A stretch of 64,000 nt of DNA from a virus: IMG/VR virus record IMGVR_UViG_3300037313_001572; one strand, given 5' to 3'. Positions 7,901 through 52,241 of this stretch are shown piece by piece; the stretch's first letter is position 1; each line of letters starts with the position of its first letter. The notes under the pieces are model-generated. The model worked only from the letters and a program-made list of their open reading frames with translations, searched no databases and was not told the DNA's origin. Made by a program: the position numbers and the translations under genes.

Positions 7901-10900
7901 AAAACGTCCAGCGCGTGACCGACGTCACGGATGTTCTCGCGCTCGACTGCGTTGGGGTCGTAATCGCCTGGCATCAGAATGCCGGTTGCAACAGAGCCAT
8001 CGCTCTTCGTGTAGAGAGTGACCGCTCCACGCCACTGCAATTTGGCGTATGCCGCGATTAGGTTGCCCGTGATGATGACACGTTGCGCCTTGTCCTCTCG
8101 AGACGCGTTATATTGAACGTCGAACTGGTCTGGATCCATGTCGACCAGGCGTTCAGCCATCTGGCTGGCAGGGATCTTCATTTCCCGGCGAAGGGTGTTG
8201 TTGGCAACGGTGAATATCACCTTGCTGGGAGTGACCGGTGCATCCGGGTCAATCTCTACGTTGGTGATGGCGCCAACTTTCTTGCCGTTGGAGGTGTTGA
8301 TGATGACCGGGTTGCCGAGGCGCCCCAATTGCGCCCAGACTTCTGCATATTGGTTGCGCAACCGCTCGCGCTCTCGCTGTTCCTGGGTCGCCCAATCCGA
8401 GATGCTCTTTTCCTTTCGCTTCTCGAGATATTTTTCCACCCATTCGGAGGATTGCTTTTTGTAGTCGGCGATGATCTTGGGCCGGCGAATGGCAATGTCG
8501 TGGGCCTGCTTCATCACCTCGGCGGGCTCCAGCGGAGTCTGTTTCGGCTTCACCTTCACCATTTCCATGTGACTCGGCGCGTCGAAAGAAGATTTCCCAT
8601 TCGGGTCTCCGGGAGTGAATACCTTGCTGCTTACCGTCTCGGCGCCAAGATCGGCCGCCGCGGCGCGCAACTTGTTCTCGCCAATCTGGTCGAGATATTT
8701 GATTTGCGCGGTGTAGCGGTTGAGCACGTCATCCCAGAACATTTCCTGTTCTTCTACGGGCAAAAGCCCGGCATAGCTGGCCACGTTTCGCGCCAGCTTC
8801 CCGTCTTCCTCCATGTCGTCCAGAATATCTTTGATCGGCGCCAGCTTCCCGTCTTTGTCGACGATCTTGGGATATTGCAGGTCTTTCAGGAACTTGGGAT
8901 TGTCCGCCAGATATTTGTAAACGACCGCGTCCCCGTACTCGTTGAAAACATCCACCACATTCGTTCCGTGGGAAACCTCGGAGTCCGTGTTGCTGGTCGT
9001 ATTGGCGTTCAGGCTCGCCATCTTCTTTCCCAGGATGGCGGCCGGCCGCTTCTCCGCCGGCAGAGCCGTTTGAAGCAGCTGGTATCGAGGCAATTCAACC
9101 TGACCGGAGCGAAAGATGCGTCCGAGGGTCTGCGTGAACTCGTTGATGTCCAGATGCGGCTGCGCAATGACCATCATGCGCGGACTGTGATTCTTGAACG
9201 TCTTGTCTGAGTGCGCGCTGATCCCCGTCGATCCGCTCTGGTTGATGACCAATAGGTGCGTGTCGCCGTTGTTGAAGTCTTTCAGCGCGGCCAGTTGCCC
9301 CCTCTTCGTGCTGTCCTCCGGTTCGCGCTCGTAGACCGCGCCGTATTTATCGATACCGGTAGTTCGACCGGTGATTTCGGCCGTCTTGATTCCCTCGTCC
9401 TGCACCCGCTGCCGGATATGGTCGATGGGCGAGAGCGGCATGCCGCCAAGATTCAATTGCTTGAGCTCTGCCTCGGCGTCGAGGAAAGCGTCGTTGGCGA
9501 TGCGGCGGAAGACTTCCGCAGCCACCTCGGGAACGACCACGCCAATTTGTTTCGGTCCTTCATCGGTGCTGATCGTCTCCACCTTAATCAGCTGTGCGAC
9601 GAGGTTGTCGTCACTGTCGTTTTTAAAGCGCGGATCGGGCTTTCTACCAATGTGGGTGTATTCAGCGGTACCGGCGGATTCGCTGCCCCTCGTCTTCACG
9701 CGGCGCAACCCGTTCAATGTTCGCACTAGCAGGCTTCCAAACTCCAGAGTAAGACCTTCCTGGTGCAATCCCTTGATGGGTTGCTCCATGGTATTCTGAA
9801 CGGCCACGATGACCTTGTGCGACTTTACCGTTCCGTCCTTTGTCTGGTGGCCAACCTTAATCGCCTGGATGGCTTGCTGGGCTGCTGCCTCTGCCTTGAT
9901 GGCGAAGAGATATTGAGAAACGAAGTTGTGAATCTGGCTGGCGAAATCGGCCGCCTCCATCTTGATGGTGGAGATATCCATTTTTTTGCCGGCCCTCACC
10001 ATAATGGCGTTCATGGATTTCACCGCGTCCTTTACGCGGTTGCTCATATCCAAGATCGTCCGAAGGCCTCGAGTGTATTCGTTGGCCAACTTTCGATCGC
10101 GCTCCTCGGTGTCGGTATTGATGCGAGTCTCAAACGGAACGCCGTCGTAACTGCGTTCCCGCCGAATGTACTGCCCGTCTTGGGCGAGCATCTGGCTCGC
10201 CACCTGTTGCATTACCACGCCGCCTCGCTTGAAAACTTCCATTAGGTTTTTCGCGCTTCCGGCCGCCTTGCTCAGATTGGTCTTGAAGTAGAGCGGCATG
10301 GAGTCGGGCCGCTTGGCAAAGGTTGCGCTGCTGTAGTAGGCTCGAGCATTGGGATTCTCGAGCATCTTCAGCAGTCGGCCGCCCTGGATGCTTTCGCCGG
10401 CAGCGAGATGCGATTCGTCCAGCAGGAAAAGAACGCGATTGCGAGCCACCAGCGCATTCAGCGCGGCCGTTCGCTTTCCAGGAAGCGGAAGGCGGCCGGC
10501 GCGCATGGCAGCCCGGCGCTCTTCGGCGGTCTCTCCCTTGGCGAAATCCTTGCCCAGCTGGTGGTAGGAAGTGAAAACCGCATCATGCCCATGCGGCATC
10601 TGTCCGTCCTTGGCGATAAGCTCCATGGTCGGATTCATGTCGCGCGTTTTGATTTCCGCATCGGTGATCGGATGCAGGATGTTCAAATTATTGTTCGTGA
10701 ACAGCGGATTGACCGTCCGGCCGATGTTGTGGAAGTCGCCCAGCATGGCCGAGAAAAGAGCCTCGTCCTTGGTGACGAAGATCGGAAGAAACCCATTGCG
10801 TTTGGCGTATTCGATCAATCCGGCCACCACGCGCCCCTTGCCAACACCAGCCATGTCTCCCAGCACCAGCGCGCCCGCGGTCTCGATGTTGTGAATTGCG

Positions 10901-13900
10901 CTGGCGATGGCGTCCAGCTGCTCGGCCGCGAAGTGTTTGCTGAGGTCGTATCCCTTTTTATACCCCATCTTTTCCCGGGCGTATTCGGCCAGGGGTTTTC
11001 CTACCTTGCGCTGAATTTCTTCCAGGGCGTGGCGTTGCGCGTCGGCAATGCCGGCGGGCGTCTCGATGCCGAAAGACGTTCCCTTCGACACGGGAACATA
11101 CGGCTTGTGAAACTGCGGTTTCTCCTCGTCGCTCTGAGCCTCGAGGGTTACCAGTCCCCGCTGCCCGCTCCCGCCGTGTTCAGCTGCTCCATTCCCCAAT
11201 CCGCCCTCTGGTCGCTCGGCAGGCTGTTCCACTCCTTCGCTGGAACTAGTTGCGGCTGGTTCTCGAGAAGCTGCTCCAGACTCATCGTTACCTCCTCCAC
11301 TGTTGGATTCCGCGGGAAATTGAGATGCAGGCCGTTTTTCTCCAGCCCCTCGACGACCGGCCAAAGCTGTTCGGACTCCAGCAAGGCTTTCGCCAAGCTC
11401 GTTGCGATGCTTTCCCTCGTCGTATTGGCCTGCTTGGATTCGGTCGTCATCGGTGCGGTTGAGTTCGGAGCGAAGTTCGCTCCACGTGTTCAAAATACGC
11501 GGCGGTTCCTGGTTTGGCAACTGGATAGGGGACTTGCCCTTTCCGGCGATCGTGATGATGTCCACCGGCCATCCGGCACCCTGTTTTTTGTAGAGGTCGC
11601 CGTTGACGGTGAAATGATCGACTACCTTGTATTGCTCGTAGAGACGCTTGAAGAACTCGCCCCGCTCGCCGCTGGCGTAGTGCTGTCGGCGCGCATTCGG
11701 GTCAATGGCTTGCGAACCTCCGATGATTAGCGAGGCGCGGCCATTGGGCGCAAGGTTCTGCAACGTATTCAGGACGATGGCATGGTCGATTTCACGCGTT
11801 TCGCCGCCGCCGGCCATAGGGAACATCGTCGCTTGGCCATTCTCGCCCTTGAGCACGCCGAATGGAGGGTTTTCGACAATGCGCGTAAACTCGCCGCTGA
11901 ATGGTTTGGTCGCGTCCTGGTCGGAGACGTCGAACCCCTGCGCCTTGAGTGCGGCTCGGCGGGTCGGGTCAATCTCGTTCGCCAGGACGTGCGCGGGATC
12001 CGCCTCGAGAAGCAGCGCGCCGTTGCCGGCGGTTGGCTCGAGTACGTACGTCTTCTCGTTCACTCCAGCGAGATGGCTTGCCAGGAATCCGAGTGGAATC
12101 GGGGTGCTGTATGCCTGGTTGATTTTACTGGCGCTCGTCTTGGCCGTGAGATTCGGCTGCCTGTTGTAGAGCTCAAGAAGGCGGTCGAAGACCTTTCCGG
12201 CATCGTGATTCTGGGCGCGTCCCTCCTCTACGATCATGCGGCCACGAATGACGACACCGTGCTCCGCCGCTTCGTCGATCTGCTTCACAGTAAGACCTGG
12301 ATGCTTCGCGGCGAGCTTTCCGAGGTCGTTTCTGTTGAGCGGGCCGTCTTTCAGTGCATCGGCCACGACGCTCGCGAGTCCCATGGCTGGCTTAATCTTT
12401 TCTGGCTTTTTCGACGGTTGGCTTAATTCGCCAGGCTCGTAGATGCTCTTCCAATCCGGCTCAGACGGCCCATCGGCACCGATGCCCTTCATGAAGAACC
12501 AGAACGATTGCGAGTAACCCTTGGCCTTCTCGCTGATGCGCCCCAGCGTTGTTGCGAGGTCTTCGGGCGATTTGATGCCGAGGCCTTCCAGCTTTTGCGC
12601 CATGGTGATGGCGTCCGCCATGCGCTCGGGCGGCAGCTTGGACGTGTAACCTGCTTCGGGGTTGGCTGCGTATAGATTGAATTGCGGGGTCTGCTCCTTC
12701 CATGCTTCGGGAATCGGCATGGTGTGGATGGGAGCCTTCCCGAAGTCTGGATTTTCAGCACGGTCAAGATGATCGCCCATTTCCATCTTTTCAGGATTGA
12801 GCTTATCAATCTGTCCGCGCTCCACCTTGCCGCCAACCTTCTCAGCCAGCTTGTTCGCAATGCGCGGAAGCATCACGTCGTAAAGGCTCTTCAGTCCTTC
12901 GCCTCCAACTTTGAGATCGGTGTTAGAATACGTCTGGGTTTTACCTTCTTGCGCGACGATTTTCTGTGCCAATTCCTTTCCGACAATGGCTTCTAGTTCA
13001 GACGGTGTTTGATCCGTGACATGAATTATCGGTTCGCTGTCGTTCCCTTTTTTGAACGCTTGGACATGGAATTGATTTTGGATACTCGACTTTGAGGCAA
13101 CGATTTTGGATATGGTATTGCTCAAGTCATACCGCTCCGTCTGCTGCTCGCCGGTAGTCCACCCAATCGCATCCGCGCCCTGGTCGATCGCGTCGCGGAT
13201 AGCCCGCTTCATGCCAATCTCATAGATGCGCTTGCGCAGTGGTTCAGGCATCTTCTGTTGCTCGGCCGCGCTCGGTCCCTGTATTTCCTCGATGAAGTAG
13301 GTTCGGCGCCCTTGGGAGTCCTCGCGGATGTTGCGGCGGATGCGGACAATCGGGTTGGCGATGTCGTTGTATTGGCTGTGCCCGTCGTGCCAGTTCTCCG
13401 ACGAATCGCGCTCGTTTCCACGAACCTGAATTTTAGAAAGCCTGTCCGCTTCCTTCAATTCTTCATCCATCCATCTGCCGCGCTTGGTTGCGGATTCTAC
13501 AAGCGCCTTAAGCTTCGACTGCGCCTCTGCGTGAGTGAGTCCGCTAGATGGCCACGTCACGAACTGCTCGCGGTAGCTGCCAGGTTCGGCGCCGGGGAGT
13601 TGGTATTGCGAGAAGCTGGCAGGCGTCCCGCGCGTAACTATTCCGCCAGCACCATCATCCATCGGCCTGCCATTCGCATCCAATACTCGCTGCTCTCCGC
13701 CCATCATAACATCCTGCACCTTGGCCTGTCGCTCAAGCGAGTAGTCCGTCAGTTCACTCTTGGTAACGCGCGAATCATCGGGCTTGCCGACGAGCGGGCT
13801 CAATGGGTCATCCAAAAGCCCCTGCTGCTTGATCTCGTCGGGTTTCGCGCCCTTTAGGATCGCCGCCCGCGCCTGCCCTACGGTCATCGTCGACTGCGGC

Positions 13901-16900
13901 AAGCTCTGGATGGTCTTGGTCAGCTTCGAAATGAAAACGGGCTTCTCTTCGTCTGGGTTGGCTGCGAACAGGTCGCCGAATCCCTTTTTTAGCTCGTCGG
14001 CCGCCTGGTCGAATTTGTCGCCCTGCTTTTTGCTGGCGATTTTCTTTTCCCGCTTATTGATGCGTTTCAGTTCGGCGTTTTGATGCGCCAAAATCTCATC
14101 ATCCATCTCTGGACGCGAGGGCTCGAGTTCGCGCTTTTTGTAGCGTCCCAGCTTCTCCTCGATGCCGTTTAGTAATTCGCGCACGTCCTTAGACAGAGTC
14201 CCCAGCTTTTCCCGCAGCCACTTCAAAAGGTTGTCCAGGAACTTGTAGCTGGATTCAGTGAGGTTTTCCGGGCCCTCGAGAAGCACTCGCGCCGCCTCGG
14301 CCGCGCGCTGGAATTCGTTCAGCCCTTCCCATTCCGGACCATAGATTTCACCGGTCTTCTCCATCAGTTCCTTGTCTCCGTTGAGACTGAGCAGCCGTTG
14401 CATGTTGGCCGTGCTTTCCTTGGCGTACTTCACGGTGCCAAGGTGGATAATTTCGTGCGCTACGGCTCGCTTCACCCACTTGGATGCCTCTTCCTTTCCG
14501 AGTTTGGAGACCGCCGCGGCAAATTTCTCTTTGTCGATGACGATACGTCCGCTGTTGGAGTCGGTGATGATTCCGCTTTTTGCCGGCGTCTCTCGGAAAA
14601 TGAATTCGTCCGGGTGCCCAAGGGCATCCAGTTCGGATTTGTGCAGCTTCAGCGCGGCATTGGCCAGTGCTACCGCGTAGTTTTTCTGTCCCTCGGTCGG
14701 TTTTTCCTCTGCCTCTGCCTTGGCCTTTTCAATCGCGGCATTTCGCTCTTTCTCCGTGGAGATTTGTTTCTCCTTCTGGAATTTATCGCGAGTCTCCTGC
14801 AGCTTCGCCTTGGCCTTTTCGGGTGTCAGTTCGGCATCGGACAGTGAGAAGTTTCCGCCGGTCTTTTCGTCTTTGAAAGCGTGCAACCCTTGGTCGCCTT
14901 TACCTTGGTATGTCGCTCCGATTTCCTTGGCGATCGACTCTGGATTGACGTTAGATGAATTTATGGCACTATTCGGCTCATGGGACGCCCTTCCACTGGT
15001 GGACACATCCGCCGATTTCCTCGCCATAATACTTCCTATCGCCTTATAAGCGTCGTCGTTGACGGTGTCAGGCGACAACGGTTTGAACACCGAATTGTTA
15101 TGGAGAAAGCTCTTGGAAGAAAGCTCTCCTCCAAGGAGGTCGTTCACCATCGCGACGGGAATGGACTTAACAACTCCATCGGAAATCTTGAGATCATTTC
15201 CCAGCGGGAGCATGTTCAAATTCACCGGTTCGGACGACTTCGATGGCCGCTGGATGAGGCCATTGAGCTTCGCAAGCAGGGATTTACCATCGCTGCGATT
15301 GCTGCCCGATACAAAGTGACCTACGCCAGCATCCAGCGCGCTTTTAAGCGCAGAGGACTCCTCGGGCGTTACGTGAAGACCGTTCGCATTCGAGACGCTG
15401 CCACCGGAAGGATTCTCGGCAGGAAGACGCTCCCCGCGTGATCTCTGCACGCGAGTCGACATTGCCCACTGCTTGAACATCTCAAGCGAAGGAAATTCCG
15501 CGATGCTATGAATGCCGGGAACCTTCGAGTAATTCGATGCGTAAAGCTCGTGCGCTTCCTTTTTTGATCCTACGCCGATTACGGCCTTCGCCTCGTCGTA
15601 TGTTCCATCCGGTTTATTTTGGTTCACGACAAACACGGGCCCCTTGTAGTCCAAGGGCGTGCCGGGCTTGATGAAGGTATCGATGTGGTCGCCGTCGTTT
15701 CCTTCCGTTCCGCGGATGTAGCCGTAGTGCGCCGTGAGCGGCGGCCACTCCGGGCGCCGACTGCTGCCGGCCGGGTTCTCGATCGAAATATCCATACCGC
15801 CAAGGCGCAGATGCCCCTTGGCGTAGTTTCCGGCCTTCTTTTGCCCCTCGGTGGGGTGCTCGAGTTCGTTCTTGGTCGAGGTTGCGGCTTCGTGCGCCGC
15901 CTGGTCTACGGTTTCTTTCGGCGCCGTGGCGGATGCGCCAGTCGCTCCAGTGGATTGTTGCTGACGTGCTCCGGAAGGCTGCTGGGATCCGGCGTTTCCT
16001 TGGCCCACTTCTCCGCCTTGTCCTTCATTTCCTGCCCCAGTGCTCCCGAGAACGCTGCTCTCATTTGCGCTTTGCTCTTGAACGGCATTACCTGGTCCTT
16101 TCGTTGGTTGCTGGCCTCGAGGTGCCGCCCCCTGTGGCTCCGTAGTGACATTCGTGGGCGGCACCTCTTCTTGGTTTTCTACGGACGGCGATTTACCGAT
16201 GGCCCGAACGATATCGTCATTGTTCAGTCCCAGTTTGGTAAGTTTGTCGGTCGCCTCGGCGTGCGACATCGTTCCGGCCATGACAGCCTTTTGAATTGCC
16301 TCCTTGCCTTCCACTTCTGGCGATGGCGGCTGCTGTTGCGTTCCCGTAGTTTCCGCGGCCGGCCCGCCAACGGCAGGCGTAGTCGGCTCGGGCTGACCTC
16401 CGCCGCCGGACTCTCCCGGATTGGTCTCGATCTTGGCCGTGGTCAACGGAGTTCCTTCGCGCTTCCCAAATTCCGGGATGAATGCCTGCTTGGCGGTGAT
16501 GCCCTTGATGGTCGACGAATCAAATTGGCCGGTGGCCTTCATCTGCTTCGCCTGCTCGCCGATGGCATTGAATACCGCCTGTTCGGTCTTCGAAAGAGGC
16601 GCGGAATTGGTATTGGCCGCCTGGTTGCTGTCCAGACCCATCTTATTGAAGGCCTCGGCTACCTGCTGCGGAGTCAGTTCCGCATCCAATGGTACGCCCA
16701 CCATGTTGCGCATCTGGGCGCGCGTGAACATGCTGGCGATGTCCTGGCTGGAGTAGTCCTTGAACTTGATGTTGTGCCCGGCGGTGATGATGCCGAGTGC
16801 GATGTTCGTCGCCATGCTCTTCAGTGTCGGACTCTGCACCTGGTCATGCTGGATACCCAGCTGATCGGCCAAAGCATTGCTGGCGTAGTCGAACAGCGGG

Positions 16901-18606
16901 CGAATCGCTCCCTCGAATACTGCGCCGCCGGCCGCGCCGCCGGCCGCGATCTTGCCAACCAGCTTCGCCGCCGCGACCGTTCCGCCCACTTGTTTTGCGA
17001 TCTGGGCGGCCTTGTAGACGTTGCTCACCGCTTCCGGCGCGTTGGCGCTCATGCCTACCAGTTCACCGGCCGCATCAAACATCGGATGCAGCTGCGCAGA
17101 CGAGTTGAGGCTCTTGATGGTGTCCGAGTAGTCGGCCAGCTTGTCCAAGGCCTTACGCGCGGCAAAGGCGGCAATGGTGCCCGTGGTCAGGCCGCCAAGT
17201 GCGCCGCCAATGAGTTCCGGTATGCCGGTCTCGCCTGCTCCTGGAATCGCAGCGCCGGCCGCCGCTCCAAGTTTCGCTCCCGGTATGGATCCAGCCCAGA
17301 AAGCCGCTCCAATTCCGCCGCCATGCAGCAAGGCTTTCAACTCCTGCGCGCCGCCGGCGGCCTGCTGCAGGGCTTGATACTTGTCCTGCGCTGCCTGGAA
17401 GTCGGGCAAATGTTGCTGCGCCCACTCCGGAGACACCAGATGATCATTTACGGCCTGACGAAGACCATCCGCCATGTTCTGCGGCTGGAAGTGAACCCCG
17501 CTGGCATCATCGTAGGTGTACGGCTTGTTGCCCGCCCGTGCATCGGTCAAAGCCTTGTTCAGCTGGTCAATTTGCTCCGGAGCAAGCGCCGGACTCGAAC
17601 CGGCCGCACTGGGATTATGAGCCCCAAGCGTATCCTGATCTTGCCCCGGAGGAGGTAGCGCCCCAAAATCTTGCGCGCGACCTACGGCCACGTCCGCGCG
17701 CTGGTGTAAAAGGTTAGACTGCTGGGCGGTCTGCTGGTCGATATGCTGCGACCGCTCGGCAATCAAATCCTTCAGGCTGCTCATCTGGTCGAGCAGCTGA
17801 TGAGCCTTTGCCTTCTGCTGGTCGTAGCCATTGCGCAGAATAGTGGCTTGCGGAGAGAAATCGCCGGATCCAAACCAGCCCGACTTTTCATTCGCCTCTG
17901 GTGCCGCGTAGAGGTCGTTAAAATGGCTGTCGATCGCTTTATGGGCGTCGTCGAGCGAGGTGTCGTCCGGCTGGTTCTGGAGGGACGGCACCATGCCGAA
18001 AAGCCCCTTCTGCATCGCCTTGTATTGAGTCTGGTCGCGATGCAGCTGGCGCTCGTCCACGGTCAGCTGTCGACCGAGGGCCTCGGAGGCATCCTTTACG
18101 GCCTTCTGCTTTTCCTGTTCGAGCGCGGCCGCGGTGGCCTGCTCGTCCTGGCCGAGATATTTCCACCCCAATCCCTTTCGAATTCGGTATTTAGCGCCCG
18201 TGTCTTGATCGATCGTAGTTGGGACATCCTTGAAGGCATCCTCCACGGCCGGCGCGCCGCCATACTCGTTGGGAGTTACCTGCACCGGGTTACCCTGGCT
18301 GTCGTATCCGACATTCGCCGCCTTATTGTAGTGCGAGACCGGTGTTCCGGTCGCGTCTGTTACCGGCTGGACGTTCCCCTTGTCGTCGGTGTAGATCGCA
18401 TTCCCCTGCGCGGCAAGGTCGCGGCCCTTCATCCGGTTTACCGTCTGCTGCGCTTGCTGCTGAACGCGTTGCGTGGATACCTGGCGTTCCTCTGTCTGGA
18501 ACGGGGTTTCGCCGGGAAGCGGAGGATTGGACGCGTAATCGCGCTCCACATCGCCTACTTCACCCGGCACATTGAGCAGCGCGTCGAGTGGGTTGTTCGA
18601 GTCCAT
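4993..18606 (-). CDS. Giant polyvalent virion/ejection protein, DarB-like (4537 aa): Gly/Ala hydrophobic N-region, inorganic-pyrophosphatase-like domain, zincin, N6-adenine MTase, Strawberry-notch SF2 helicase, KOW-like, helical C-terminus
   Basis: GNYAKGH..ISIENPAGS..HYGYIRGTEGNDGDHID (~15465-15910); HEIIH (~14445); VLEPTAGNG (~12030) and NPPF (11860-11871); GDMAGVGKGR (~10845), DESH (~10413), SGSTGISAH and TLGRIFRSGQ (~9100-9240). Confidence 0.85.
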   Translation of the reverse strand: MDSNNPLDALLNVPGEVGDVERDYASNPPLPGETPFQTEERQVSTQRVQQQAQQTVNRMKGRDLAAQGNAIYTDDKGNVQPVTDATGTPVSHYNKAANVGYDSQGNPVQVTPNEYGGAPAVEDAFKDVPTTIDQDTGAKYRIRKGLGWKYLGQDEQATAAALEQEKQKAVKDASEALGRQLTVDERQLHRDQTQYKAMQKGLFGMVPSLQNQPDDTSLDDAHKAIDSHFNDLYAAPEANEKSGWFGSGDFSPQATILRNGYDQQKAKAHQLLDQMSSLKDLIAERSQHIDQQTAQQSNLLHQRADVAVGRAQDFGALPPPGQDQDTLGAHNPSAAGSSPALAPEQIDQLNKALTDARAGNKPYTYDDASGVHFQPQNMADGLRQAVNDHLVSPEWAQQHLPDFQAAQDKYQALQQAAGGAQELKALLHGGGIGAAFWAGSIPGAKLGAAAGAAIPGAGETGIPELIGGALGGLTTGTIAAFAARKALDKLADYSDTIKSLNSSAQLHPMFDAAGELVGMSANAPEAVSNVYKAAQIAKQVGGTVAAAKLVGKIAAGGAAGGAVFEGAIRPLFDYASNALADQLGIQHDQVQSPTLKSMATNIALGIITAGHNIKFKDYSSQDIASMFTRAQMRNMVGVPLDAELTPQQVAEAFNKMGLDSNQAANTNSAPLSKTEQAVFNAIGEQAKQMKATGQFDSSTIKGITAKQAFIPEFGKREGTPLTTAKIETNPGESGGGGQPEPTTPAVGGPAAETTGTQQQPPSPEVEGKEAIQKAVMAGTMSHAEATDKLTKLGLNNDDIVRAIGKSPSVENQEEVPPTNVTTEPQGAAPRGQQPTKGPGNAVQEQSANESSVLGSTGAGNEGQGGEVGQGNAGSQQPSGARQQQSTGATGASATAPKETVDQAAHEAATSTKNELEHPTEGQKKAGNYAKGHLRLGGMDISIENPAGSSRRPEWPPLTAHYGYIRGTEGNDGDHIDTFIKPGTPLDYKGPVFVVNQNKPDGTYDEAKAVIGVGSKKEAHELYASNYSKVPGIHSIAEFPSLEMFKQWAMSTRVQRSRGERLPAENPSGGSVSNANGLHVTPEESSALKSALDAGVGHFVSGSNRSDGKSLLAKLNGLIQRPSKSSEPVNLNMLPLGNDLKISDGVVKSIPVAMVNDLLGGELSSKSFLHNNSVFKPLSPDTVNDDAYKAIGSIMARKSADVSTSGRASHEPNSAINSSNVNPESIAKEIGATYQGKGDQGLHAFKDEKTGGNFSLSDAELTPEKAKAKLQETRDKFQKEKQISTEKERNAAIEKAKAEAEEKPTEGQKNYAVALANAALKLHKSELDALGHPDEFIFRETPAKSGIITDSNSGRIVIDKEKFAAAVSKLGKEEASKWVKRAVAHEIIHLGTVKYAKESTANMQRLLSLNGDKELMEKTGEIYGPEWEGLNEFQRAAEAARVLLEGPENLTESSYKFLDNLLKWLREKLGTLSKDVRELLNGIEEKLGRYKKRELEPSRPEMDDEILAHQNAELKRINKREKKIASKKQGDKFDQAADELKKGFGDLFAANPDEEKPVFISKLTKTIQSLPQSTMTVGQARAAILKGAKPDEIKQQGLLDDPLSPLVGKPDDSRVTKSELTDYSLERQAKVQDVMMGGEQRVLDANGRPMDDGAGGIVTRGTPASFSQYQLPGAEPGSYREQFVTWPSSGLTHAEAQSKLKALVESATKRGRWMDEELKEADRLSKIQVRGNERDSSENWHDGHSQYNDIANPIVRIRRNIREDSQGRRTYFIEEIQGPSAAEQQKMPEPLRKRIYEIGMKRAIRDAIDQGADAIGWTTGEQQTERYDLSNTISKIVASKSSIQNQFHVQAFKKGNDSEPIIHVTDQTPSELEAIVGKELAQKIVAQEGKTQTYSNTDLKVGGEGLKSLYDVMLPRIANKLAEKVGGKVERGQIDKLNPEKMEMGDHLDRAENPDFGKAPIHTMPIPEAWKEQTPQFNLYAANPEAGYTSKLPPERMADAITMAQKLEGLGIKSPEDLATTLGRISEKAKGYSQSFWFFMKGIGADGPSEPDWKSIYEPGELSQPSKKPEKIKPAMGLASVVADALKDGPLNRNDLGKLAAKHPGLTVKQIDEAAEHGVVIRGRMIVEEGRAQNHDAGKVFDRLLELYNRQPNLTAKTSASKINQAYSTPIPLGFLASHLAGVNEKTYVLEPTAGNGALLLEADPAHVLANEIDPTRRAALKAQGFDVSDQDATKPFSGEFTRIVENPPFGVLKGENGQATMFPMAGGGETREIDHAIVLNTLQNLAPNGRASLIIGGSQAIDPNARRQHYASGERGEFFKRLYEQYKVVDHFTVNGDLYKKQGAGWPVDIITIAGKGKSPIQLPNQEPPRILNTWSELRSELNRTDDDRIQAGQYDEGKHRNELGESLAGVRTALAGRRGAGEKRPASQFPAESNSGGGNDESGAASREPAATSSSEGVEQPAERPEGGLGNGAAEHGGSGQRGLVTLEAQSDEEKPQFHKPYVPVSKGTSFGIETPAGIADAQRHALEEIQRKVGKPLAEYAREKMGYKKGYDLSKHFAAEQLDAIASAIHNIETAGALVLGDMAGVGKGRVVAGLIEYAKRNGFLPIFVTKDEALFSAMLGDFHNIGRTVNPLFTNNNLNILHPITDAEIKTRDMNPTMELIAKDGQMPHGHDAVFTSYHQLGKDFAKGETAEERRAAMRAGRLPLPGKRTAALNALVARNRVLFLLDESHLAAGESIQGGRLLKMLENPNARAYYSSATFAKRPDSMPLYFKTNLSKAAGSAKNLMEVFKRGGVVMQQVASQMLAQDGQYIRRERSYDGVPFETRINTDTEERDRKLANEYTRGLRTILDMSNRVKDAVKSMNAIMVRAGKKMDISTIKMEAADFASQIHNFVSQYLFAIKAEAAAQQAIQAIKVGHQTKDGTVKSHKVIVAVQNTMEQPIKGLHQEGLTLEFGSLLVRTLNGLRRVKTRGSESAGTAEYTHIGRKPDPRFKNDSDDNLVAQLIKVETISTDEGPKQIGVVVPEVAAEVFRRIANDAFLDAEAELKQLNLGGMPLSPIDHIRQRVQDEGIKTAEITGRTTGIDKYGAVYEREPEDSTKRGQLAALKDFNNGDTHLLVINQSGSTGISAHSDKTFKNHSPRMMVIAQPHLDINEFTQTLGRIFRSGQVELPRYQLLQTALPAEKRPAAILGKKMASLNANTTSNTDSEVSHGTNVVDVFNEYGDAVVYKYLADNPKFLKDLQYPKIVDKDGKLAPIKDILDDMEEDGKLARNVASYAGLLPVEEQEMFWDDVLNRYTAQIKYLDQIGENKLRAAAADLGAETVSSKVFTPGDPNGKSSFDAPSHMEMVKVKPKQTPLEPAEVMKQAHDIAIRRPKIIADYKKQSSEWVEKYLEKRKEKSISDWATQEQRERERLRNQYAEVWAQLGRLGNPVIINTSNGKKVGAITNVEIDPDAPVTPSKVIFTVANNTLRREMKIPASQMAERLVDMDPDQFDVQYNASREDKAQRVIITGNLIAAYAKLQWRGAVTLYTKSDGSVATGILMPGDYDPNAVERENIRDVGHALDVLRNGQEISSSDGKVRIALKGGKYLLEVPSSKQAGGKFWQDPAVNRAMKNGFEQKGQWMVGEISNLGEVVGIMDRLGATLGYRPNSGTELAAADPSKIKVGDRVNVYKKPGTITSIKGKKMTVSLDEGGVIPAHVDNVTPIPAETPEAKAAAAAKASTNKPAGVSASSIAEDIGRQKEEAKKKLSDVIAGAKAVYGSAKSFFTQLAPVTDYLKAKGEWLGTGALDDPRSTGRQKSDYEVRQMERAINSKFSPAEQEAITNFIQAGGDKSTLQQRAGASSPSLAPGYEAAAKLSGEPLKFVDEVKSFYAAKAKQAQEAGILDDLLTDYVNQMWDRRNDPSYAAQNARNRNLGDVVGPGRLNTRFENAFERIHESYFAGEQKGLKPFTKKIGKLMALWAESFNRVMQNRAFIKLLLHEINATDGRPAATISGYAKPVSDSGGDALLVTPRGKSDETADYVRIENPALRGWKWVHVDPVTGTNTFVKGDILIHPEIAGDLKRTLGKSAIQNTPIIRQLRNLQFAVKQTLLSMSAFHFVQEGTHALGHTINPFHPVQIDINDQTQRELINSGLMIASHEARRDFMEGVAGGGLIDKLPVIGKMNQELNAFLFEDYIPRLKMTMAIEALKRNLARFEDDIKAGKITRQQILFKTAQQSNDAFGEQNYRMMGRSQTFQDILRLGLLAPDFLESRLKFAADATTKYGSEQRRALLILAATMFLTAKLAEKALTGDYDWRHPFSVTYKGREYKLRSVPGDMIDLFADTRRFIYGRISPIISRGIIEGLTGRDWRGQKRSFGEQLGDMLKAPVPIAIRGIIDKRTDINPGEELAGATGLSIKRHSDITETRVAGRDYQVAHGKANPDEVFPPSKYQKLKYALEDGNESKARQAFDELAKQEGRDQVMQGFRKSLLRPFSGGRETEQDFVKGLSQHQRTVYNRATAKQAVMMAMLQRISAAASVTEAPSKPKHIFTGFHS
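11148..11450 (-). CDS. Candidate nested gene in the +1 frame of the giant ORF (100 aa, or 45 aa from ATG 11285)
   Basis: Protein-like acidic helical sequence while the host frame here reads as a G/R/A/E/S-rich shadow; ATG at 11285 is preceded by GGAGGAGGT. Confidence 0.45.
   Translation of the reverse strand: MTTESKQANTTRESIATSLAKALLESEQLWPVVEGLEKNGLHLNFPRNPTVEEVTMSLEQLLENQPQLVPAKEWNSLPSDQRADWGMEQLNTAGAGSGDW
14980..15441 (+). CDS. HNH homing endonuclease (HNH_3-like + C-terminal HTH), nested antisense in the giant ORF
   Basis: EHRIVMEKALGRKLSSKEVVHHRDGNGLNNSIGNL..H motif; C-terminal helix-turn-helix-like LRKQGFTIAAIAARYKVTYASI. Confidence 0.85.
   Translation: MGRPSTGGHIRRFPRHNTSYRLISVVVDGVRRQRFEHRIVMEKALGRKLSSKEVVHHRDGNGLNNSIGNLEIISQREHVQIHRFGRLRWPLDEAIELRKQGFTIAAIAARYKVTYASIQRAFKRRGLLGRYVKTVRIRDAATGRILGRKTLPA
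15906..16088 (-). CDS. Nested 60-aa 'MPFKSKAQ' small phage protein in the +1 frame of the giant ORF
   Basis: MPFKSKAQMRAAF..AEKWAKETP..SLPEHV matches a recurring small phage protein pattern (from recall); AAGGA 7-8 nt upstream of ATG 16088. Confidence 0.6.
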   Translation of the reverse strand: MPFKSKAQMRAAFSGALGQEMKDKAEKWAKETPDPSSLPEHVSNNPLERLAHPPRRRKKP

Positions 18607-18609
18607 TGA

Positions 18610-20133
18610 TTAAACGCCGTCGTTGACGGAGGTGTCCGTGAGCCGCTTTTTGAATTCCGCATCCTGCGGACTGGTGGCGAATCGATCCAATGGGTTCTCC
18701 TGCATCGAGGTAGTTCCCAAGGGAGTCGGCGCCGCGGTGTTCTCGCCAAACAAAATCGTGCCCGGCGATCCATACTCTGGATTCCCCTTGTCCATCTCTT
18801 CCTTCTGCTGCGGTAGACTTTGCGGGGCCGGCTGCGCATTGATCTGCTGCGCGCGCTGCGCGTCGGAGGCATCTTTCTGCTTCGCCTGAAATGCGGCATC
18901 CTGCGCGGCCACATCCGACATTTGTTTCGCCTTTGCCTGCTCTGCTGCTTTCAGCTGATCGGCTCCGGTAATGGGCGGCTCCTGCGCGGCATTCGAGGAT
19001 CCCATCAACTCCGCCGGGTTGATTCCGGCGAAGGGAGATTGAGGAGCGGTCGCATTCGCGGCGGCGGCCGGCGCGGCCGGCATGTCGGACAACGAATCGA
19101 AGAAGGATCCGTGCTGCGGGCTGCTGCTGGCTCCTGTTCCGGCCGATGGGCTTGCGGTTTGGACGTCTGCCGGATGCACAAAACGAACGCCATTCTCGCC
19201 GCCTGGGGTGCCGTATTTCTCCGCGATCTTCGCGCCGCCCATGGTGTCGTAACGAGGATCGTATTCGATTGCCTCGGTCGTGCGACGATCGCCGCCGGGG
19301 GTGCGCGCCGTGCCTTCGCCGGTCTGCAACGTCTTTTGACCGAGCACGCGCTCTCCGCGGTAGTCGAAAGCACCAGCCCCAGTGTCCGTGACTTCGCCGG
19401 TACTCGGCGCCGGGTTTTCCCGAAGCCACTGTGCGCGCTGTTGCGGCGTCCACGTCTGCCATTGTCCGCCGGTACGCGCGTGCATCACCTGATCGAAGGT
19501 AGGAGACACTCCCACCTCTCGGGGCCCGCTGTGGGTTTGCACCGTGGAGACCAGGCCGGCGCCTGTCTGGGTGACGTGCGGATTCATCCCATTGGGAAAA
19601 GGGATGGCATCGACCGCTTTTTCCAGCGGGGTTCGCTCACTTCCAGGAGTGTTCACGGCCGGGGAGCGCAATGGCGTCTGACCCGGAGACGTTCCCGGAA
19701 CCGGGATACCCGTTACCGCTCCTGCCATGGCGTTGCCGGCGTTCTGCACGGCTGCCGATACCTTTCCGGCGGAATTGGTGTTAGGCGTCGCGCTGGTCGC
19801 CTGTGACGAAATTCGGCGTTGTTGCGCCTGGGCAATTCCGTCCATCCGAATGGTGGCATCGGCGATATCCTTGGCGGACATTTCGCCGTGAACTACGGGA
19901 AGAGCGGACTCCATGGCGCCGTTTTTGATGAGATTGGCCCGCTGATTTCGCAAGGCGGCCACCAATTCGGCGCGATGCTGCTCCTGCTGCATCTGGTGTG
20001 CCGCGGCCTTCTCCGTGGCCAGATTGCTCATCACAGTTCCCGCGCTGGGCGGGCCGTAGGGTGCGTAGGGGCGGCTCATGTCTCCCGTATTTGGGAAACC
20101 TTCGTCAAAGTCAAGTGAACGCCGCCAGTCCAA
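18610..20133 (-). CDS. Putative internal virion / ejection protein (507 aa, A/P/Q-rich)
   Basis: Lies between terL and the giant protein; low-complexity composition typical of podovirus core proteins. Confidence 0.55.
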   Translation of the reverse strand: MDWRRSLDFDEGFPNTGDMSRPYAPYGPPSAGTVMSNLATEKAAAHQMQQEQHRAELVAALRNQRANLIKNGAMESALPVVHGEMSAKDIADATIRMDGIAQAQQRRISSQATSATPNTNSAGKVSAAVQNAGNAMAGAVTGIPVPGTSPGQTPLRSPAVNTPGSERTPLEKAVDAIPFPNGMNPHVTQTGAGLVSTVQTHSGPREVGVSPTFDQVMHARTGGQWQTWTPQQRAQWLRENPAPSTGEVTDTGAGAFDYRGERVLGQKTLQTGEGTARTPGGDRRTTEAIEYDPRYDTMGGAKIAEKYGTPGGENGVRFVHPADVQTASPSAGTGASSSPQHGSFFDSLSDMPAAPAAAANATAPQSPFAGINPAELMGSSNAAQEPPITGADQLKAAEQAKAKQMSDVAAQDAAFQAKQKDASDAQRAQQINAQPAPQSLPQQKEEMDKGNPEYGSPGTILFGENTAAPTPLGTTSMQENPLDRFATSPQDAEFKKRLTDTSVNDGV

Positions 20134-22414
20134 GCCCGCTGCGTAAAGAAATGTCGCCTGCGTCGGTATCGGAATGCAGAGAAGTGAAGACCGCCGGCGG
20201 CATGTACATGGTGGCCCGCTCGATATTTGCCAGTCCGATGCCGATACCCATCACCCAATCGTCATGGCACCCGGGCTTCGCTTCTGCGCGGCCGCGGTCG
20301 GTCACGATGAAGGTCTTCAGTTCCACGATTGCCGGCATAAATTCGCAGTCCAAGGCGTCCTCGGAGACGTAATTCGTGATCGCGTTCACCACGATTGGAC
20401 GCGTGTCTTTGTTCGTCTCCCATCCGATGACATTGATTCTCTCGTTGGGGTGGACATTGTCCATCTTCTCGCGCTGGTAGATGCGGCACCCGGCGCGGCG
20501 AAGCTCGTTGAGCATTCCAAGCCCGTTGCCGGTCTCGGGAATAATCTCGCACCCCCCATACCAGTCCAAAAGCATGCGCATGCGCTCCGCATAAAGTGCG
20601 TCGTCCCACCGGCATCCGGTCGGAACATCGATCGCCGCCACGAGGCGCGGCTTTCGCCACCGGCCGCGATCGTCGAAGTAACCTTGCCGCAGGATTCCGC
20701 CAGCGTGCGCGTCTGGGAACAGGCTGCCCTCGCTCTGCTCGCCCTGGCACGGATCCAGGAACGCGATGTAGGAGCAGCCGGCGGCTGGCCGCTCTTTCAC
20801 CCAGAGCCAATTATCCGAGTCTCCTCGAGGCATGAAATTGATGCCGCCGCGCTCGCCCTTCTCGAGTACACCGGTTTCTGCGATTCCGTAGGAAACGCGC
20901 GCCACCTTTTCCCACCGTGAGAGCACGTCGAGATTGAATTTTGGCCGGCCCGACGCAAGGAAGCAGCTTTCGGCGTCTTCCGGGAAATCCTGGTCGAACA
21001 TACGCACATCGTTGGCGCAGTCCTTTTTGATCTTCATGCGGCGCCAGGCGATTTGCTCTGGTGACCAGTTGTAAAGGTCGATACCGCGGCGCTCGCGGTG
21101 GTCAAGATCGGAAGAAAAGTAGTCGGCGTTGTCCGCCGTGCGCGCCAGCTTGTGCTCCGGGAAGTAGAACCAGGCTGCGAAGACCTTGATCCAGCCATTT
21201 CCAACGACACCCTTCTTTCGCTGCTCAAGCGTCACGGCGTCCTGCCACGTCTCGTAGAACCAGCCTGATGCGCCTTCAGCCGTGCTCTCCGCCGCGCAAA
21301 GGGTATTGGGTTTGTCCGGGAGAGAGTTGAGAACGGCGGTGATGACCTTCTTGTCCCGCCCGCTGTTCTTCATGTAGCGGGCCGCCTCGGTCAACCACAC
21401 AATTTGCCGGGTGCCAGAGATACCGGCTTTCGGATCGAGCGCGGTGTCGTGCTCCACGACTGCCTCGCTTCCATCGTCCATCTGGAAAACAATCTTTTCC
21501 GTGTTCGATTTGATGATGGCCGTGTCCCACTGGAAATTATCGTGCTTGGGGATGTCCTGGAACATTTGCCAAACCTTTTCCGTCCGCTTGGCCACGTCCC
21601 CCATCATAATCATGTCGAACTTGAACCGCCGGATGTGGTGATAACATACCGCGGCGCAGTAAGTAGAGCATCCAACCTGGCGCGGCTTCAGGATGATGAG
21701 CCGAATCGGGATGCTATTATCTAGGCAATACTGGTAGGCATCGGAGATTGAGAATTGCAGGATGTTAGGAATCGGAGTTCTCCACACGTGCTCCTTATCC
21801 TCTATCTCCGTGAATCCTGCGAAGTGCACCAGCGGGCTGTTGCGCACCATCTCGATGCCGATTTCCGCAGTCATGTCCGGAATTTTCGGCGCCTCCACCT
21901 CCGGTATATTCATCGAGGGAAATCGCCGGCCGCCTTTGAACTCGTGCCAGTTCTTTCGCATCCATTCATCCAGTCCTTTGCCTGGCCGGTATTGGCAATT
22001 CGTCAAGAGCTCGAATTCATCGGCCGCTTCATCAAAGGAGGCGGCAGTGATTCGATACAGCACCTTGGCAAGAAAGAGAATTGCCAGCGTTGGGGCCCGG
22101 CTTTCTCCCTGGTTGCAGTGGATGAGGATTTTCCGGCCTTCCTCCCACGCGTGCCGCATGAATTCTATGAAGGAGTCGAACATTTCACGCTGAAAGAGCG
22201 GAGTGCTCGGATCGATCATGTTCAAAAACAGGTCGTTCCCCTCGCGATAGGCGAGATAATTTGAGGAGCTCGAGTCGGGCCGGCTGCCACACTTGGAGGC
22301 ATGGCACGGATGCTTGCAAGCATGCACCACGCTCCACTCTGGGTTACCCTCTACGGCTTTGCAGTCCTCGAGCGAGCCGACGTAGAGGTTATCGATTACC
22401 CGGCAACGGGGCAT
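20111..22414 (-). CDS. terL: Terminase large subunit with N-terminal dual-specificity-phosphatase-like domain
   Basis: IILKPRQVGCST (Walker A), VWLTEAA (Walker B), ESTAEG coupling motif, FLDPCQG and HDDWVMG nuclease motifs; N-terminal ~160 aa has NLYVGS..D and ILIHCNQGESRA (CX5R). Confidence 0.9.
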   Translation of the reverse strand: MPRCRVIDNLYVGSLEDCKAVEGNPEWSVVHACKHPCHASKCGSRPDSSSSNYLAYREGNDLFLNMIDPSTPLFQREMFDSFIEFMRHAWEEGRKILIHCNQGESRAPTLAILFLAKVLYRITAASFDEAADEFELLTNCQYRPGKGLDEWMRKNWHEFKGGRRFPSMNIPEVEAPKIPDMTAEIGIEMVRNSPLVHFAGFTEIEDKEHVWRTPIPNILQFSISDAYQYCLDNSIPIRLIILKPRQVGCSTYCAAVCYHHIRRFKFDMIMMGDVAKRTEKVWQMFQDIPKHDNFQWDTAIIKSNTEKIVFQMDDGSEAVVEHDTALDPKAGISGTRQIVWLTEAARYMKNSGRDKKVITAVLNSLPDKPNTLCAAESTAEGASGWFYETWQDAVTLEQRKKGVVGNGWIKVFAAWFYFPEHKLARTADNADYFSSDLDHRERRGIDLYNWSPEQIAWRRMKIKKDCANDVRMFDQDFPEDAESCFLASGRPKFNLDVLSRWEKVARVSYGIAETGVLEKGERGGINFMPRGDSDNWLWVKERPAAGCSYIAFLDPCQGEQSEGSLFPDAHAGGILRQGYFDDRGRWRKPRLVAAIDVPTGCRWDDALYAERMRMLLDWYGGCEIIPETGNGLGMLNELRRAGCRIYQREKMDNVHPNERINVIGWETNKDTRPIVVNAITNYVSEDALDCEFMPAIVELKTFIVTDRGRAEAKPGCHDDWVMGIGIGLANIERATMYMPPAVFTSLHSDTDAGDISLRSGLGLAAFT

Positions 22415-26039: not shown

Positions 26040-26109
26040 ATGCAAGTTGGTTGCATCTTTGTGGGTCAAAAGGCGGGTTTTGCCGCATCCATATGCAAGT
26101 TACTTGCAT
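26040..26109. promoter_or_regulatory. Two ATGCAA-N5-TTGCAT palindromes (26040-26056, 26093-26109)
   Basis: ATGCAAGTTGGTTGCAT and ATGCAAGTTACTTGCAT at the terS 3' end. Confidence 0.65.
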
Positions 26110-27020
26110 CACGGCTGCTGGTGATGCGTGGCCCGGGCATCGAACAGGGCCTTGAGCGTGCCGGCGACCACGGCCGCCACGGTCTCGGCAGCGACCGGCT
26201 GCCGGCCGGCGGCCCGGCGGCTGGCTTCCGGCGTCTCCGGGGCATCGATCTTGCCGCGGAGCTTGAGCAGGAGCTCGGCATCCTTGGTGTTGCGCACCCG
26301 TTTGTAGCCTACGAGTAGGCCACCTTGGTAGACGGGAGCGGTGTCGCCGATGGTTGCGCCTCTGAAGACGGCCGCTTCGACCAGGTCCGTCGCGTGGGCG
26401 ACCGCATCCGCCGAGGCGCGGGCGAACTCCGGGCTGGCCGCCTGGGCATTCTCCACGCTTTGCCGGCTCACGTTCACCTTCCGGCAGGCCAAAGCGATCA
26501 CTCCGCCGTATTCCATCAGCGCCAGGACGTAGCGCGCCTGCCACTGCGGCAGCCGTTGCAGCTGGTCGCCCAGAGATTCCGGCGGTCTCGCGCGCGCAAG
26601 CGGCTCAGAGGAAGCCGGGGCGTAGCCCGCGATGGCCAAAGGCTCCGCCTGCTGCTGCTCCGGATGCTCCGCCGATTGCCCGTGCTCCGGCTCCCTGATA
26701 TCGGCTACAGTCGGTTGCTCCTGATTCGCTGTTGCCCGTTCCCTGATACCTTCCGGATGCTGTTCATGCTCTGCTGGCTGTGGAGGGTGATCTGGCTGGC
26801 ATTTTGAGATGATGTCGGCTTTTTCGTCGTTGAGTGGGTCGGGTTCGTAGGCGTCCTCTAGGGCTTCGTCGAGAGGGTAGGGCGGGGGTTTTGGGACGAG
26901 AGTGGGGTCGTAGCCTTCTTCTATCGCTCTTTCGCGCTTGGATTTGCGGCGGCTGGTTTGGGCGGGAGTCGTGTCGGCTTCGTAGTCGCCGTTGGATTGG
27001 TCGTAGTCGGTATCGCTCAT
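26109..27020 (-). CDS. terS: Terminase small subunit (likely start ATG 27020; ORF track extends it to 27371)
   Basis: YVLALMEYGGVIALACRKVNVSRQSV..PEFA..A..A.DLVE..FRGA..G..PVYQGG.LVG...DAELLLK pattern of HTH-type TerS. Confidence 0.75.
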   Translation of the reverse strand: MSDTDYDQSNGDYEADTTPAQTSRRKSKRERAIEEGYDPTLVPKPPPYPLDEALEDAYEPDPLNDEKADIISKCQPDHPPQPAEHEQHPEGIRERATANQEQPTVADIREPEHGQSAEHPEQQQAEPLAIAGYAPASSEPLARARPPESLGDQLQRLPQWQARYVLALMEYGGVIALACRKVNVSRQSVENAQAASPEFARASADAVAHATDLVEAAVFRGATIGDTAPVYQGGLLVGYKRVRNTKDAELLLKLRGKIDAPETPEASRRAAGRQPVAAETVAAVVAGTLKALFDARATHHQQP

Positions 27021-27397
27021 AGGTCGGAGGGGTTGAGGATGGCGCGGTATCCGTGGAATCCGCAGGCTGGGCAGTGGACGTGGCCGGGTTCTGGGTGCTC
27101 GAGGAGGGCGCAGCCGTTGGGGCAGACTCCGTCCTCTTCTCTGGTGCGGCTGCGGACGTAAGCGCGAAGATCGGCAATTGCGGCGGCAAGGTGAGGGGCT
27201 GGCGGATAGACTAGGTGGGGCGAGGCGTCCAGTTCCTCGATCGCTTTTAGCATCCACCGGGCGTGGGCGCCGGATTCGTGGCACTGGAGGCAGACGGGAT
27301 AACGGTTCTCGGGCTCGTCGGTGTGTCCGTGAGTTCCCATCACCTCTCTGATTTGGTCGCAGACTACGCACGGTTTCTTCTCGGATTTGTCGCTCAT
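27017..27397 (-). CDS. Zinc-finger hypothetical protein
   Basis: CxxC, CxxCH, CPNGC and CPACG; ATGA-type overlap with terS. Confidence 0.55.
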   Translation of the reverse strand: MSDKSEKKPCVVCDQIREVMGTHGHTDEPENRYPVCLQCHESGAHARWMLKAIEELDASPHLVYPPAPHLAAAIADLRAYVRSRTREEDGVCPNGCALLEHPEPGHVHCPACGFHGYRAILNPSDL

Positions 27398-52142: not shown

Positions 52143-52241
52143 GATGATTTTTGGTGAAAGGGTTGATCGTCCGGCGGCGGAGACAGTCACCCCCGCCGGA
52201 CTCGCGTGCGCCTCGGTGCGACGGTTCTGTTCCGGCGCTCG

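Follow-up and report, generated by a model that had tools for sequence, protein, structure and literature searches.

A phosphatase domain fused to a phage large terminase, and its relatives beside terminase and restriction genes

The fusion and its two enzymes

The DNA analysed here, a stretch of 64,000 nucleotides (nt) of an uncultured soil phage from IMG/VR record IMGVR_UViG_3300037313_001572 (hereafter the window), carries a gene in which a Cys-based, dual-specificity-type phosphatase (DSP) domain is fused in frame to a bona fide large terminase subunit (TerL). The gene, which we call DSP-TerL, lies on the minus strand at 20111-22414 and is a single open reading frame (ORF) of 767 amino acids (aa) plus stop, uninterrupted by any internal stop. 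Its start codon is found 4 nt past the stop of the upstream gene, and this start is credible because the first residues align with the N-termini of the homologues. An earlier reading of the window made from its letters (the sequence-only reading) had proposed such a fusion; the single ORF, the fused homologues and the folds of both parts uphold the proposal, and we consider that the architecture and its link to the terminase are very probably real.

That homologues might never be fused, a concern of the sequence-only reading, is clearly answered by the protein database, where about 45 full-length fused homologues (750-830 aa, 38-73% identity), mostly on contigs of 60-68 kb, keep both domains in one ORF. 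The identical DSP-TerL protein is present on five contigs. A check of the assembly across position ~21930 had also been called for, and contigs from separate runs were found to be identical over the junction: in Logan contigs from two soil or rhizosphere runs (depth ~497 and ~18) the whole ORF was matched with zero differences, and a short contig of 242 nt, assembled in another study, spans the domain junction with its match to 21799-22040. It could still be said in favour of an assembly or sequencing error, by which two separate genes had been joined, that the junction is covered by assembled contigs and not by raw reads; however, with identical contigs from these runs and diverged homologues from unrelated samples that each form one long ORF, such an error is hardly conceivable, and we regard this explanation as effectively refuted already.

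The two enzymes are connected by a variable linker rich in Pro, Ala and Glu (aa 161-192; 21839-21934, minus strand), delimited by the homologue lengths and by the drop in predicted local distance difference test (pLDDT) score at the end of the domain model. Across homologues the linker ranges from 27 to 71 aa, and it looks flexible. In an alignment of 41 fused homologues, conservation of the DSP domain comes close to that of the TerL core (mean pairwise identity 46% versus 51%, r = 0.65), which suggests that the fused domain is under purifying selection similar to that acting on TerL. The further suggestion that translation from an internal Met could yield a phosphatase-free TerL found no support, as no Shine-Dalgarno-like sequence is suitably spaced before M167 or M181; the former is shared with the closest homologues only, and the latter is not conserved.

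The phosphatase domain occupies aa 1-160 (21935-22414, minus strand). Translation confirmed the three motifs on which it had been recognised, namely NLYVGS at aa 9-14, the general-acid loop LNMIDP with Asp68 at aa 64-69 (22208-22225, minus strand) and the phosphate-binding loop HCNQGESR with the nucleophile Cys100 and Arg106 at aa 99-106 (22097-22120, minus strand). An AlphaFold2 (AF2) model of aa 1-165, built on an alignment of 37 homologues, has a mean pLDDT of 95.6. Searched with Foldseek, this model gave 153 PDB matches at E <= 1e-3 (E ~1e-7 for the domain), and the 50 that were listed are all DSP-type phosphatases or the pseudophosphatase STYX. With VIA-align the best match was DUSP8 (Z 16.3, root-mean-square deviation (rmsd) 2.7 A, 136 aligned residues), with DUSP16, 15, 22, 7, 1 and 10 tied behind it (Z 15.8-16.3 for DUSP8, 16, 15 and 22). 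The domain thus resembles the small DUSPs (DUSP8/16/10, DUSP22/JSP-1, DUSP15, VHR/DUSP3) in its fold, which superposes over 134-142 residues at Z ~16 and rmsd 2.7-3.1 A, in its HCX5R loop and in a general-acid Asp ~32 residues upstream of it. It differs from them in sharing only 16-22% identity, in having a Cys/His-rich segment and a C-terminal motif of its own, and in being a prokaryotic or viral domain fused to a DNA motor.

At the sequence level the likeness is fainter. Matches to PDB sequences (DUSP10, VHR) are weak, and the Pfam family DSPc (PF00782) matches the core alone, aa 77-117, with E 2e-7 to 8e-7 and 29.3-31.1 bits, just short of its curated cut-off of 33.5 bits; a relative, P0321, scores 38.2 bits against the same family. 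The sub-threshold score would reflect a divergent subfamily, and the modelled fold together with the motifs leaves the predicted assignment in no doubt. The subfamily signature reads VVHACKxPCH ... LNxIDP ... HCNQGESRAP, and a C-terminal YxPGxGI...W motif is conserved as well. Also conserved, and specific to this DSP subfamily, is a cluster of Cys and His residues (C18, H31, C33, C37 and H38, within aa 18-38, ~22301-22363, minus strand), which may be a metal or redox site. Neither PADLOC nor NCBIfam gave any match for the domain or for its standalone homologues.

The catalytic residues are in place. In a gap-free profile alignment to VHR, Asp68 falls at the general-acid position of VHR, 32 residues before Cys100, so that nucleophile, Arg and acid are all present. 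Among the fused homologues L64 and N65 never vary and D68 is retained by at least 90%, and the Asp is invariant in the standalone family; the CX5R signature is intact in 35 of the 41 fused homologues and in 202 of 216 family members, which are mostly standalone and include a few other fusions. Phosphomonoesterases whose substrates are alcohol or phenol esters typically have such a set of nucleophile, Arg and general acid. The RNA triphosphatases among Cys-phosphatases have no general-acid Asp and carry a loop of the HCTHGxNRT type; with Asp68 present and a HCNQGESR loop, the window domain does not match the RNA 5'-triphosphatase type (baculovirus BVP, PIR1/DUSP11, metazoan capping enzyme). No RNA-triphosphatase or lipid-phosphatase type could be identified among the 50 best solved structures. 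The P-loop holds an acidic residue, Glu104, which is invariant in the standalone family.

Two families of conflict-system DSP-type phosphatases, PTP-SAK (PF22784) and Tc-R-P (PF22785), score 17-20 bits (E 6e-4 to 9e-3), below their curated cut-off of 27 bits. They have in common with the window domain that they are Cys-phosphatase domains used by mobile elements and toxin systems; unlike it, they reside in injected polyvalent or toxin proteins and not in a terminase. In the paper on polyvalent proteins (PMC5512222), none of the phosphatase terms looked for was found and terminase is mentioned only as a packaging system.

The remainder of the protein, residues 193-740, is a T4 gp17-like terminase made of an ASCE ATPase and an RNase H-like nuclease. 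The AF2 model of aa 186-767 has a pLDDT of 90.7, and its best PDB match is T4 gp17 (3cpe; Foldseek E 4e-21), followed by the T7, D6E, HK97 and Sf6 terminases. The ATPase domain (aa 193-505; 20900-21838, minus strand) was assigned by fold matches to full-length gp17 and to the gp17 ATPase domain, and by profile alignment to gp17. The nuclease domain (aa 506-740; 20195-20899, minus strand) was assigned by PHROG terminase profiles, which match aa 607-726, by a match to the gp17/RB49 nuclease profile (E 2e-9 to 8e-9) and by the folds 3c6h and 5m1f. The nuclease triad is canonical: D554 (20753-20755), E627 (20534-20536) and D718/D719 (20258-20263), all on the minus strand, align with gp17 D401, E458 and D542, with D554, D718 and D719 invariant and E627 kept in at least 90%. 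The S377-T378 coupling motif also aligns with gp17.

The ATPase site is, from its sequence, unusual for a terminase. Within the deviant Walker A, KPRQVGCST (21662-21688, minus strand), identified from invariant columns and aligned to SRQLGKT of gp17, Cys249 stands at the canonical Lys position, and K243, six residues upstream, G248 and S250 are invariant; with an invariant Lys at the start of its loop, the segment fits the class of terminases that have a 'deviant Walker A'. In the Walker B and catalytic Glu strand, IVWLTE (21386-21403, minus strand), aligned to MIYIDE of gp17, the Walker B Asp position is taken by Thr342 (Ser or Thr family-wide), and the catalytic Glu343 is invariant. These features are common to all 73 family members, fused and unfused, and are thus a family trait and not the defect of one copy. 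The sequence-only reading had described the ATPase and nuclease motifs as intact, which holds for the nuclease; the ATPase motifs deviate (C249, T342), though in a way conserved throughout the family.

Like T4 gp17 and other TerLs (Sf6 gp2, D6E, HK97, P74-26), the window protein combines the ASCE ATPase with the RNase H-like nuclease, and its nuclease Asp/Glu/Asp, its catalytic Glu and its S-T coupling motif align with those of gp17. Unlike TerLs of the gp17 type, it adds an N-terminal enzyme domain and has a deviant Walker A and a Thr in place of the Walker B Asp. The nearest TerLs of cultured phages, those of Roseobacter phage CRP-7 and Stx phages, share 22-25% identity with it.

Recurrence beside terminases and restriction systems

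Fusion is not a fixed property of this terminase family. Distant TerL relatives of 570-610 aa are without the DSP domain, and for unfused relatives, of which P0046 was checked, a tblastn search of loci L001 and L002 found no separate DSP gene within ~2-6 kb of TerL. In a tree of 76 TerL sequences, unfused subclades are nested inside the fused clade, and the fused P0201 and P0264 pair with each other, apart from these, in a clade whose other members are unfused; the fused state requires at least four to five changes. As read from this tree, the domain has been gained or lost at least four to five times within the TerL family of the window gene.

A profile search over 1.8 billion representatives returned 714 proteins at E < 1e-10, nearly all of them standalone and 150-170 aa long. 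Ten proteins longer than 350 aa were found among the top 150 matches, and all ten were TerL fusions or homologues of the window protein at E < 1e-180 (P0201, P0264, P0321 and P0198 were scanned directly). One of them, P0321, carries the same DSP subfamily on another TerL family (phrog_6681) without BLAST similarity to the window TerL core, and its DSP groups with the phage standalone DSPs and not with the main fused clade. The fusion therefore arose at least twice, and the domain was lost repeatedly. Some fused terminases also host inteins, since several of the DSP-TerL homologues of ~1,112-1,119 aa (P0018, P0026, P0028, P0035, P0039 and P0044) carry a LAGLIDADG-type intein (PF14528); two are without a recorded intein match.

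Standalone members of the subfamily are also found close to terminase genes. Of ten distinct IMG/VR loci with a standalone DSP gene, five have, downstream of it on the same strand and at a distance of 0-2 small genes, a TerL gene of a third family (phrog_2/5909), and in a sixth a TerL of the window's family lies 4 kb downstream. The cultured Tunturiibacter phage Tunturi_3 has on its circular map the order DSP (gp146), gp147, TerL (gp1), portal. Association of DSP and TerL in phages is frequent, not universal; in at least three TerL families the subfamily is repeatedly encoded directly before the TerL gene or joined to it, and the independent in-frame fusions amount to more than adjacency. The standalone phage DSPs (VpV262 ORF44, Q8LT65; Vibrio phage 1.077.O gp32; Tunturi_3 gp146) belong to the same or a near subfamily, with 28-38% identity, and VpV262 ORF44 is the best viral structural match to the window DSP (template-modelling (TM) score 0.79-0.84, rmsd 2.5 A); they differ from it in being separate proteins of 156-170 aa.

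Two of the phrog_2-family TerLs, encoded at 7893-9674 of locus L108 and 7606-9390 of locus L113, have an HNH-endonuclease-like N-terminal region of ~165 residues, and both lie directly downstream of a standalone DSP gene. HNH endonucleases of the HK97 gp74 type are accessory factors associated with terminases and are needed for cos cleavage. The DSP is similar to these in that the gene for an accessory enzyme recurs beside the terminase and is sometimes fused to it; it differs from them in its predicted phosphomonoesterase fold and chemistry, which are not those of a nuclease, and in being dispensable in close relatives.

Cellular genomes carry the family too. Standalone homologues, ~50% identical to the phage domain and with an invariant HCNQGESR loop, were found in 149 GTDB species representatives, among Acidobacteriota, Planctomycetota, Gammaproteobacteria, Chloroflexota, Thermotogota, Halobacteria, Bathyarchaeia and Asgard archaea. 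When the neighbours of the gene were clustered over 80 genomes, no neighbour family occurred in more than seven loci, so the gene has no constant partner with which it would form a two-gene system. Genes that recur next to it encode HsdM, HsdS, HsdR, a large N6/N4 methylase with a ResIII helicase, Shedu, SLFN/AlbA ATPases and integrases; AbiE and HipA were also seen. In about nine of the 80 loci the DSP gene shares the direction of a type I or type III-like restriction operon and lies within it or immediately next to it, as in hsdM-(SLFN)-DSP-hsdS. The cellular DSP is, in these genomes, a solitary, mobile gene of defence islands, often in restriction operons. The operon loci (L086, L089, L090, L094, L025, L033, L038, L095 and L097) come from diverse bacteria and archaea, with the layouts hsdM-DSP-hsdS and DSP-hsdR-hsdM for type I and ResIII-methylase-DSP for type III-like systems, and at L070 and L081 the DSP gene abuts a convergent Shedu gene.

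The fusions and neighbourhoods that tie one phosphatase family to several terminase lineages and to restriction systems are a classic signal of functional partnership.

Packaging genes and other genes of the window

Around DSP-TerL the gene content points to a packaging module. A candidate small terminase subunit of 420 aa is encoded 3.7 kb upstream on the same strand (26109-27371, minus strand); it matches the 'terminase small subunit' family phrog_4044 over aa 272-374 (E 5e-16) and has no Pfam match. A capsid-like gene lies at 58081-59667, and the order TerL, ~500-aa gene, giant polyvalent protein is conserved in relatives. With TerS-like and capsid-like genes and a conserved gene order, the context is, as far as these matches indicate, that expected of a terminase gene.

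The giant protein is a polyvalent-type product of 4,537 aa encoded two genes downstream of TerL (4993-18606, minus strand), in which Pfam recognises an InPase pyrophosphatase-like domain (aa 921-1047) and a Strawberry-notch-like helicase (AAA_34 and Helicase_C_4, aa 2562-3304); its counterpart at locus L002 has 3,686 aa. In the replication module, all on the minus strand, there are a 908-aa SNF2/ResIII-type helicase (42259-44985), long enough for the intein that the sequence-only reading had noted, a small protein with a C-terminal DnaJ domain (46689-47318) and an SMC/AAA_23-type ATPase (50121-52190). A DNA methyltransferase at 31967-34061 (minus strand) is split into adjacent ORFs of 304 and 401 aa that match the same PHROG methyltransferase families.

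Possible roles of the tethered phosphatase

The sequence-only reading had offered three roles for the phosphatase, namely processing of DNA ends at packaging, regulation of the motor and defence against a host kinase, and the present data narrow the choice among them but do not settle it. We tentatively favour the reading that the domain is an accessory protein phosphatase, a 'guard' tethered to the packaging motor, although we would put it somewhat below even odds. Taking into consideration that close relatives have repeatedly lost the domain, a role in the core of the motor is disfavoured and a conflict-type accessory fits better; we infer that the domain is dispensable and belongs to the latter kind, and not to the core packaging mechanism. 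In such a mechanism, the TerL tether would bring the phosphatase in cis to the packaging complex on the DNA, when and where it is needed, and there Cys100, Arg106 and Asp68 would carry out classical two-step phosphomonoester hydrolysis. The likeliest substrates would be phospho-Ser, phospho-Thr or phospho-Tyr residues on TerL itself or on neighbouring DNA-bound proteins, and the effect would be to reverse an inactivating phosphorylation, whether this came from defence kinases of the host or from promiscuous phage kinases tethered to DNA; the cellular homologues would serve restriction enzymes in the same way. A protein substrate is favoured because the structure is DUSP-like throughout, the general acid is present and the P-loop residue is acidic, not basic. 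What makes a guard plausible is that DNA-binding defence proteins are preferred targets of the T7 kinase and its JSS1 relative, which inactivate them by phosphorylation, and that phage proteins are also hyperphosphorylated in T7 infection (PMC13645617).

Several observations weigh against a guard phosphatase. In the Zobellviridae (VpV262, Vibrio phage 1.077.O) the DSP gene sits in the early or replication module, away from TerL. Six of the 41 fused copies have replaced the Cys (by Ser or Asp) or the Arg and retain the domain, and these copies would fit a binding-only or decaying domain better than an essential catalytic guard; at least two of the six stand on long branches, and such copies look like decay toward loss. 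Among the window's 27 largest ORFs, to which the Pfam scan was limited, no protein kinase was recognised, so that the kinase would have to come from the host or from a competitor. Predicted docking between the DSP domain and the TerL core scored 0.00, which is evidence neither way. Likeness to protein DUSPs, moreover, does not by itself fix the substrate of a modelled domain, and terminases and restriction enzymes may just as well have in common the DNA ends that they create as a susceptibility to phosphorylation. A wider reading, which takes in both possibilities, is that the HCNQGESR-type subfamily is a hitherto unrecognised and widely exchanged accessory of ATP-driven DNA translocase-nucleases, added to terminases by phages and to type I and type III restriction enzymes by cells, in a phosphorylation-based arms race, whether it erases kinase marks or acts on DNA ends; this we hold to be possible and somewhat doubtful.

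If DNA ends were the substrate, the domain would strip the 5' (or 3') phosphate from double-strand ends made by the terminase nuclease. In phages this would alter how genome ends are treated by host exonucleases, ligases and end-sensing defences, and in cells the enzyme would act on ends produced by type I or type III restriction enzymes or by Shedu, blocking the re-ligation or repair of cut phage DNA. Its partners are indeed all ATP-driven translocase-nucleases or nucleases (TerLs of at least three families, HsdR/HsdM/HsdS, Res-Mod, Shedu), and the tether puts the active site beside the DNA end that TerL holds. HNH proteins assist cos-terminases, and the HNH-like N-terminal regions on the L108 and L113 TerLs add to the precedent for accessory DNA enzymes beside or fused to a terminase. 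However, to our knowledge no Cys-based DSP-fold enzyme acts on DNA monophosphate ends, and a 'repair' of ends would be superfluous because RNase H-like and HNH nucleases already leave a 3'-OH and a 5'-phosphate. The acidic Glu104 stands where basic residues are usual for polyanionic substrates, the closest structures are protein phosphatases, and close relatives dispense with the domain. We therefore consider action on DNA ends unlikely.

The repeated loss of a gene that is highly mobile and solitary in cellular genomes, and whose Zobellviridae copies lie elsewhere, would also suit a mobile 'moron' with no link to packaging, that is, a late anti-host or metabolic phosphatase that inserts before the packaging module and is occasionally fused to its first large gene. 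An insertion hot spot alone, however, cannot explain an in-frame fusion kept over homologues of 38-73% identity, nor does this account sit well with TerL as the fusion partner in ten of ten long proteins, with at least two independent fusions to unrelated TerL families, or with a fused domain whose purifying selection appears similar to that of TerL; it strikes us as improbable. An anti-defence enzyme or sponge, acting on a small phosphorylated signal, a modified nucleotide or a tRNA late in infection, when capsid- or terminase-triggered abortive systems fire, seems to us quite improbable. It has on its side the arms-race-like pattern of gain and loss, the residence of the family in defence islands and the natural Cys-to-Ser and Cys-to-Asp variants, which leave the phosphate-binding loop otherwise intact, as they should if it were enough to bind (Cys-less copies would then merely bind the ligand). 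Yet those copies are on long branches and may be decaying, no link to a known signalling defence was seen (zero PADLOC matches, no conserved partner gene), Cys phosphatases cleave monoesters and not the cyclic diesters of known immune signals, and the TerL-specific fusion is left unexplained.

It is very improbable that the phosphatase fold serves only as a non-catalytic adaptor that docks the small terminase, the portal or DNA. The N-terminus of TerL contacts the small terminase in some phages, and six of the 41 homologues are without a catalytic residue; nevertheless, Cys, Arg and Asp are kept in 85% of the fused copies, and Cys and Arg in ~93% of the family overall, cellular copies without a terminase included. 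The closest unfused relatives, moreover, package without the domain, and the linker is variable in length and flexible-looking.

Large terminases are among the best-studied molecular motors and are regarded as two-domain enzymes, and we know of none with a third catalytic domain of unrelated chemistry. Full-text literature searches found no description of a terminase-phosphatase fusion, and the named public copies that were looked up are all annotated as 'hypothetical protein', which agrees with the statement of the sequence-only reading that it knew of none. TerL and DSPs are each known individually; their combination, its recurrence across terminase families and the link to restriction operons appear to be undescribed.

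The guard hypothesis is directly testable, as the 160-residue domain is confidently modelled and the cultivable phage Tunturi_3 carries an unfused gene near its terminase. If DNA ends proved to be the substrate, this would be the first Cys-based DNA-end phosphatase, and a new chemistry in packaging and restriction. If, instead, the domain takes phosphates off proteins, it would be the reverse side of the recently described strategy by which T7-like phages use kinases to disarm DNA-binding defences, and the erasing of kinase marks would point to a general 'guard phosphatase' principle.

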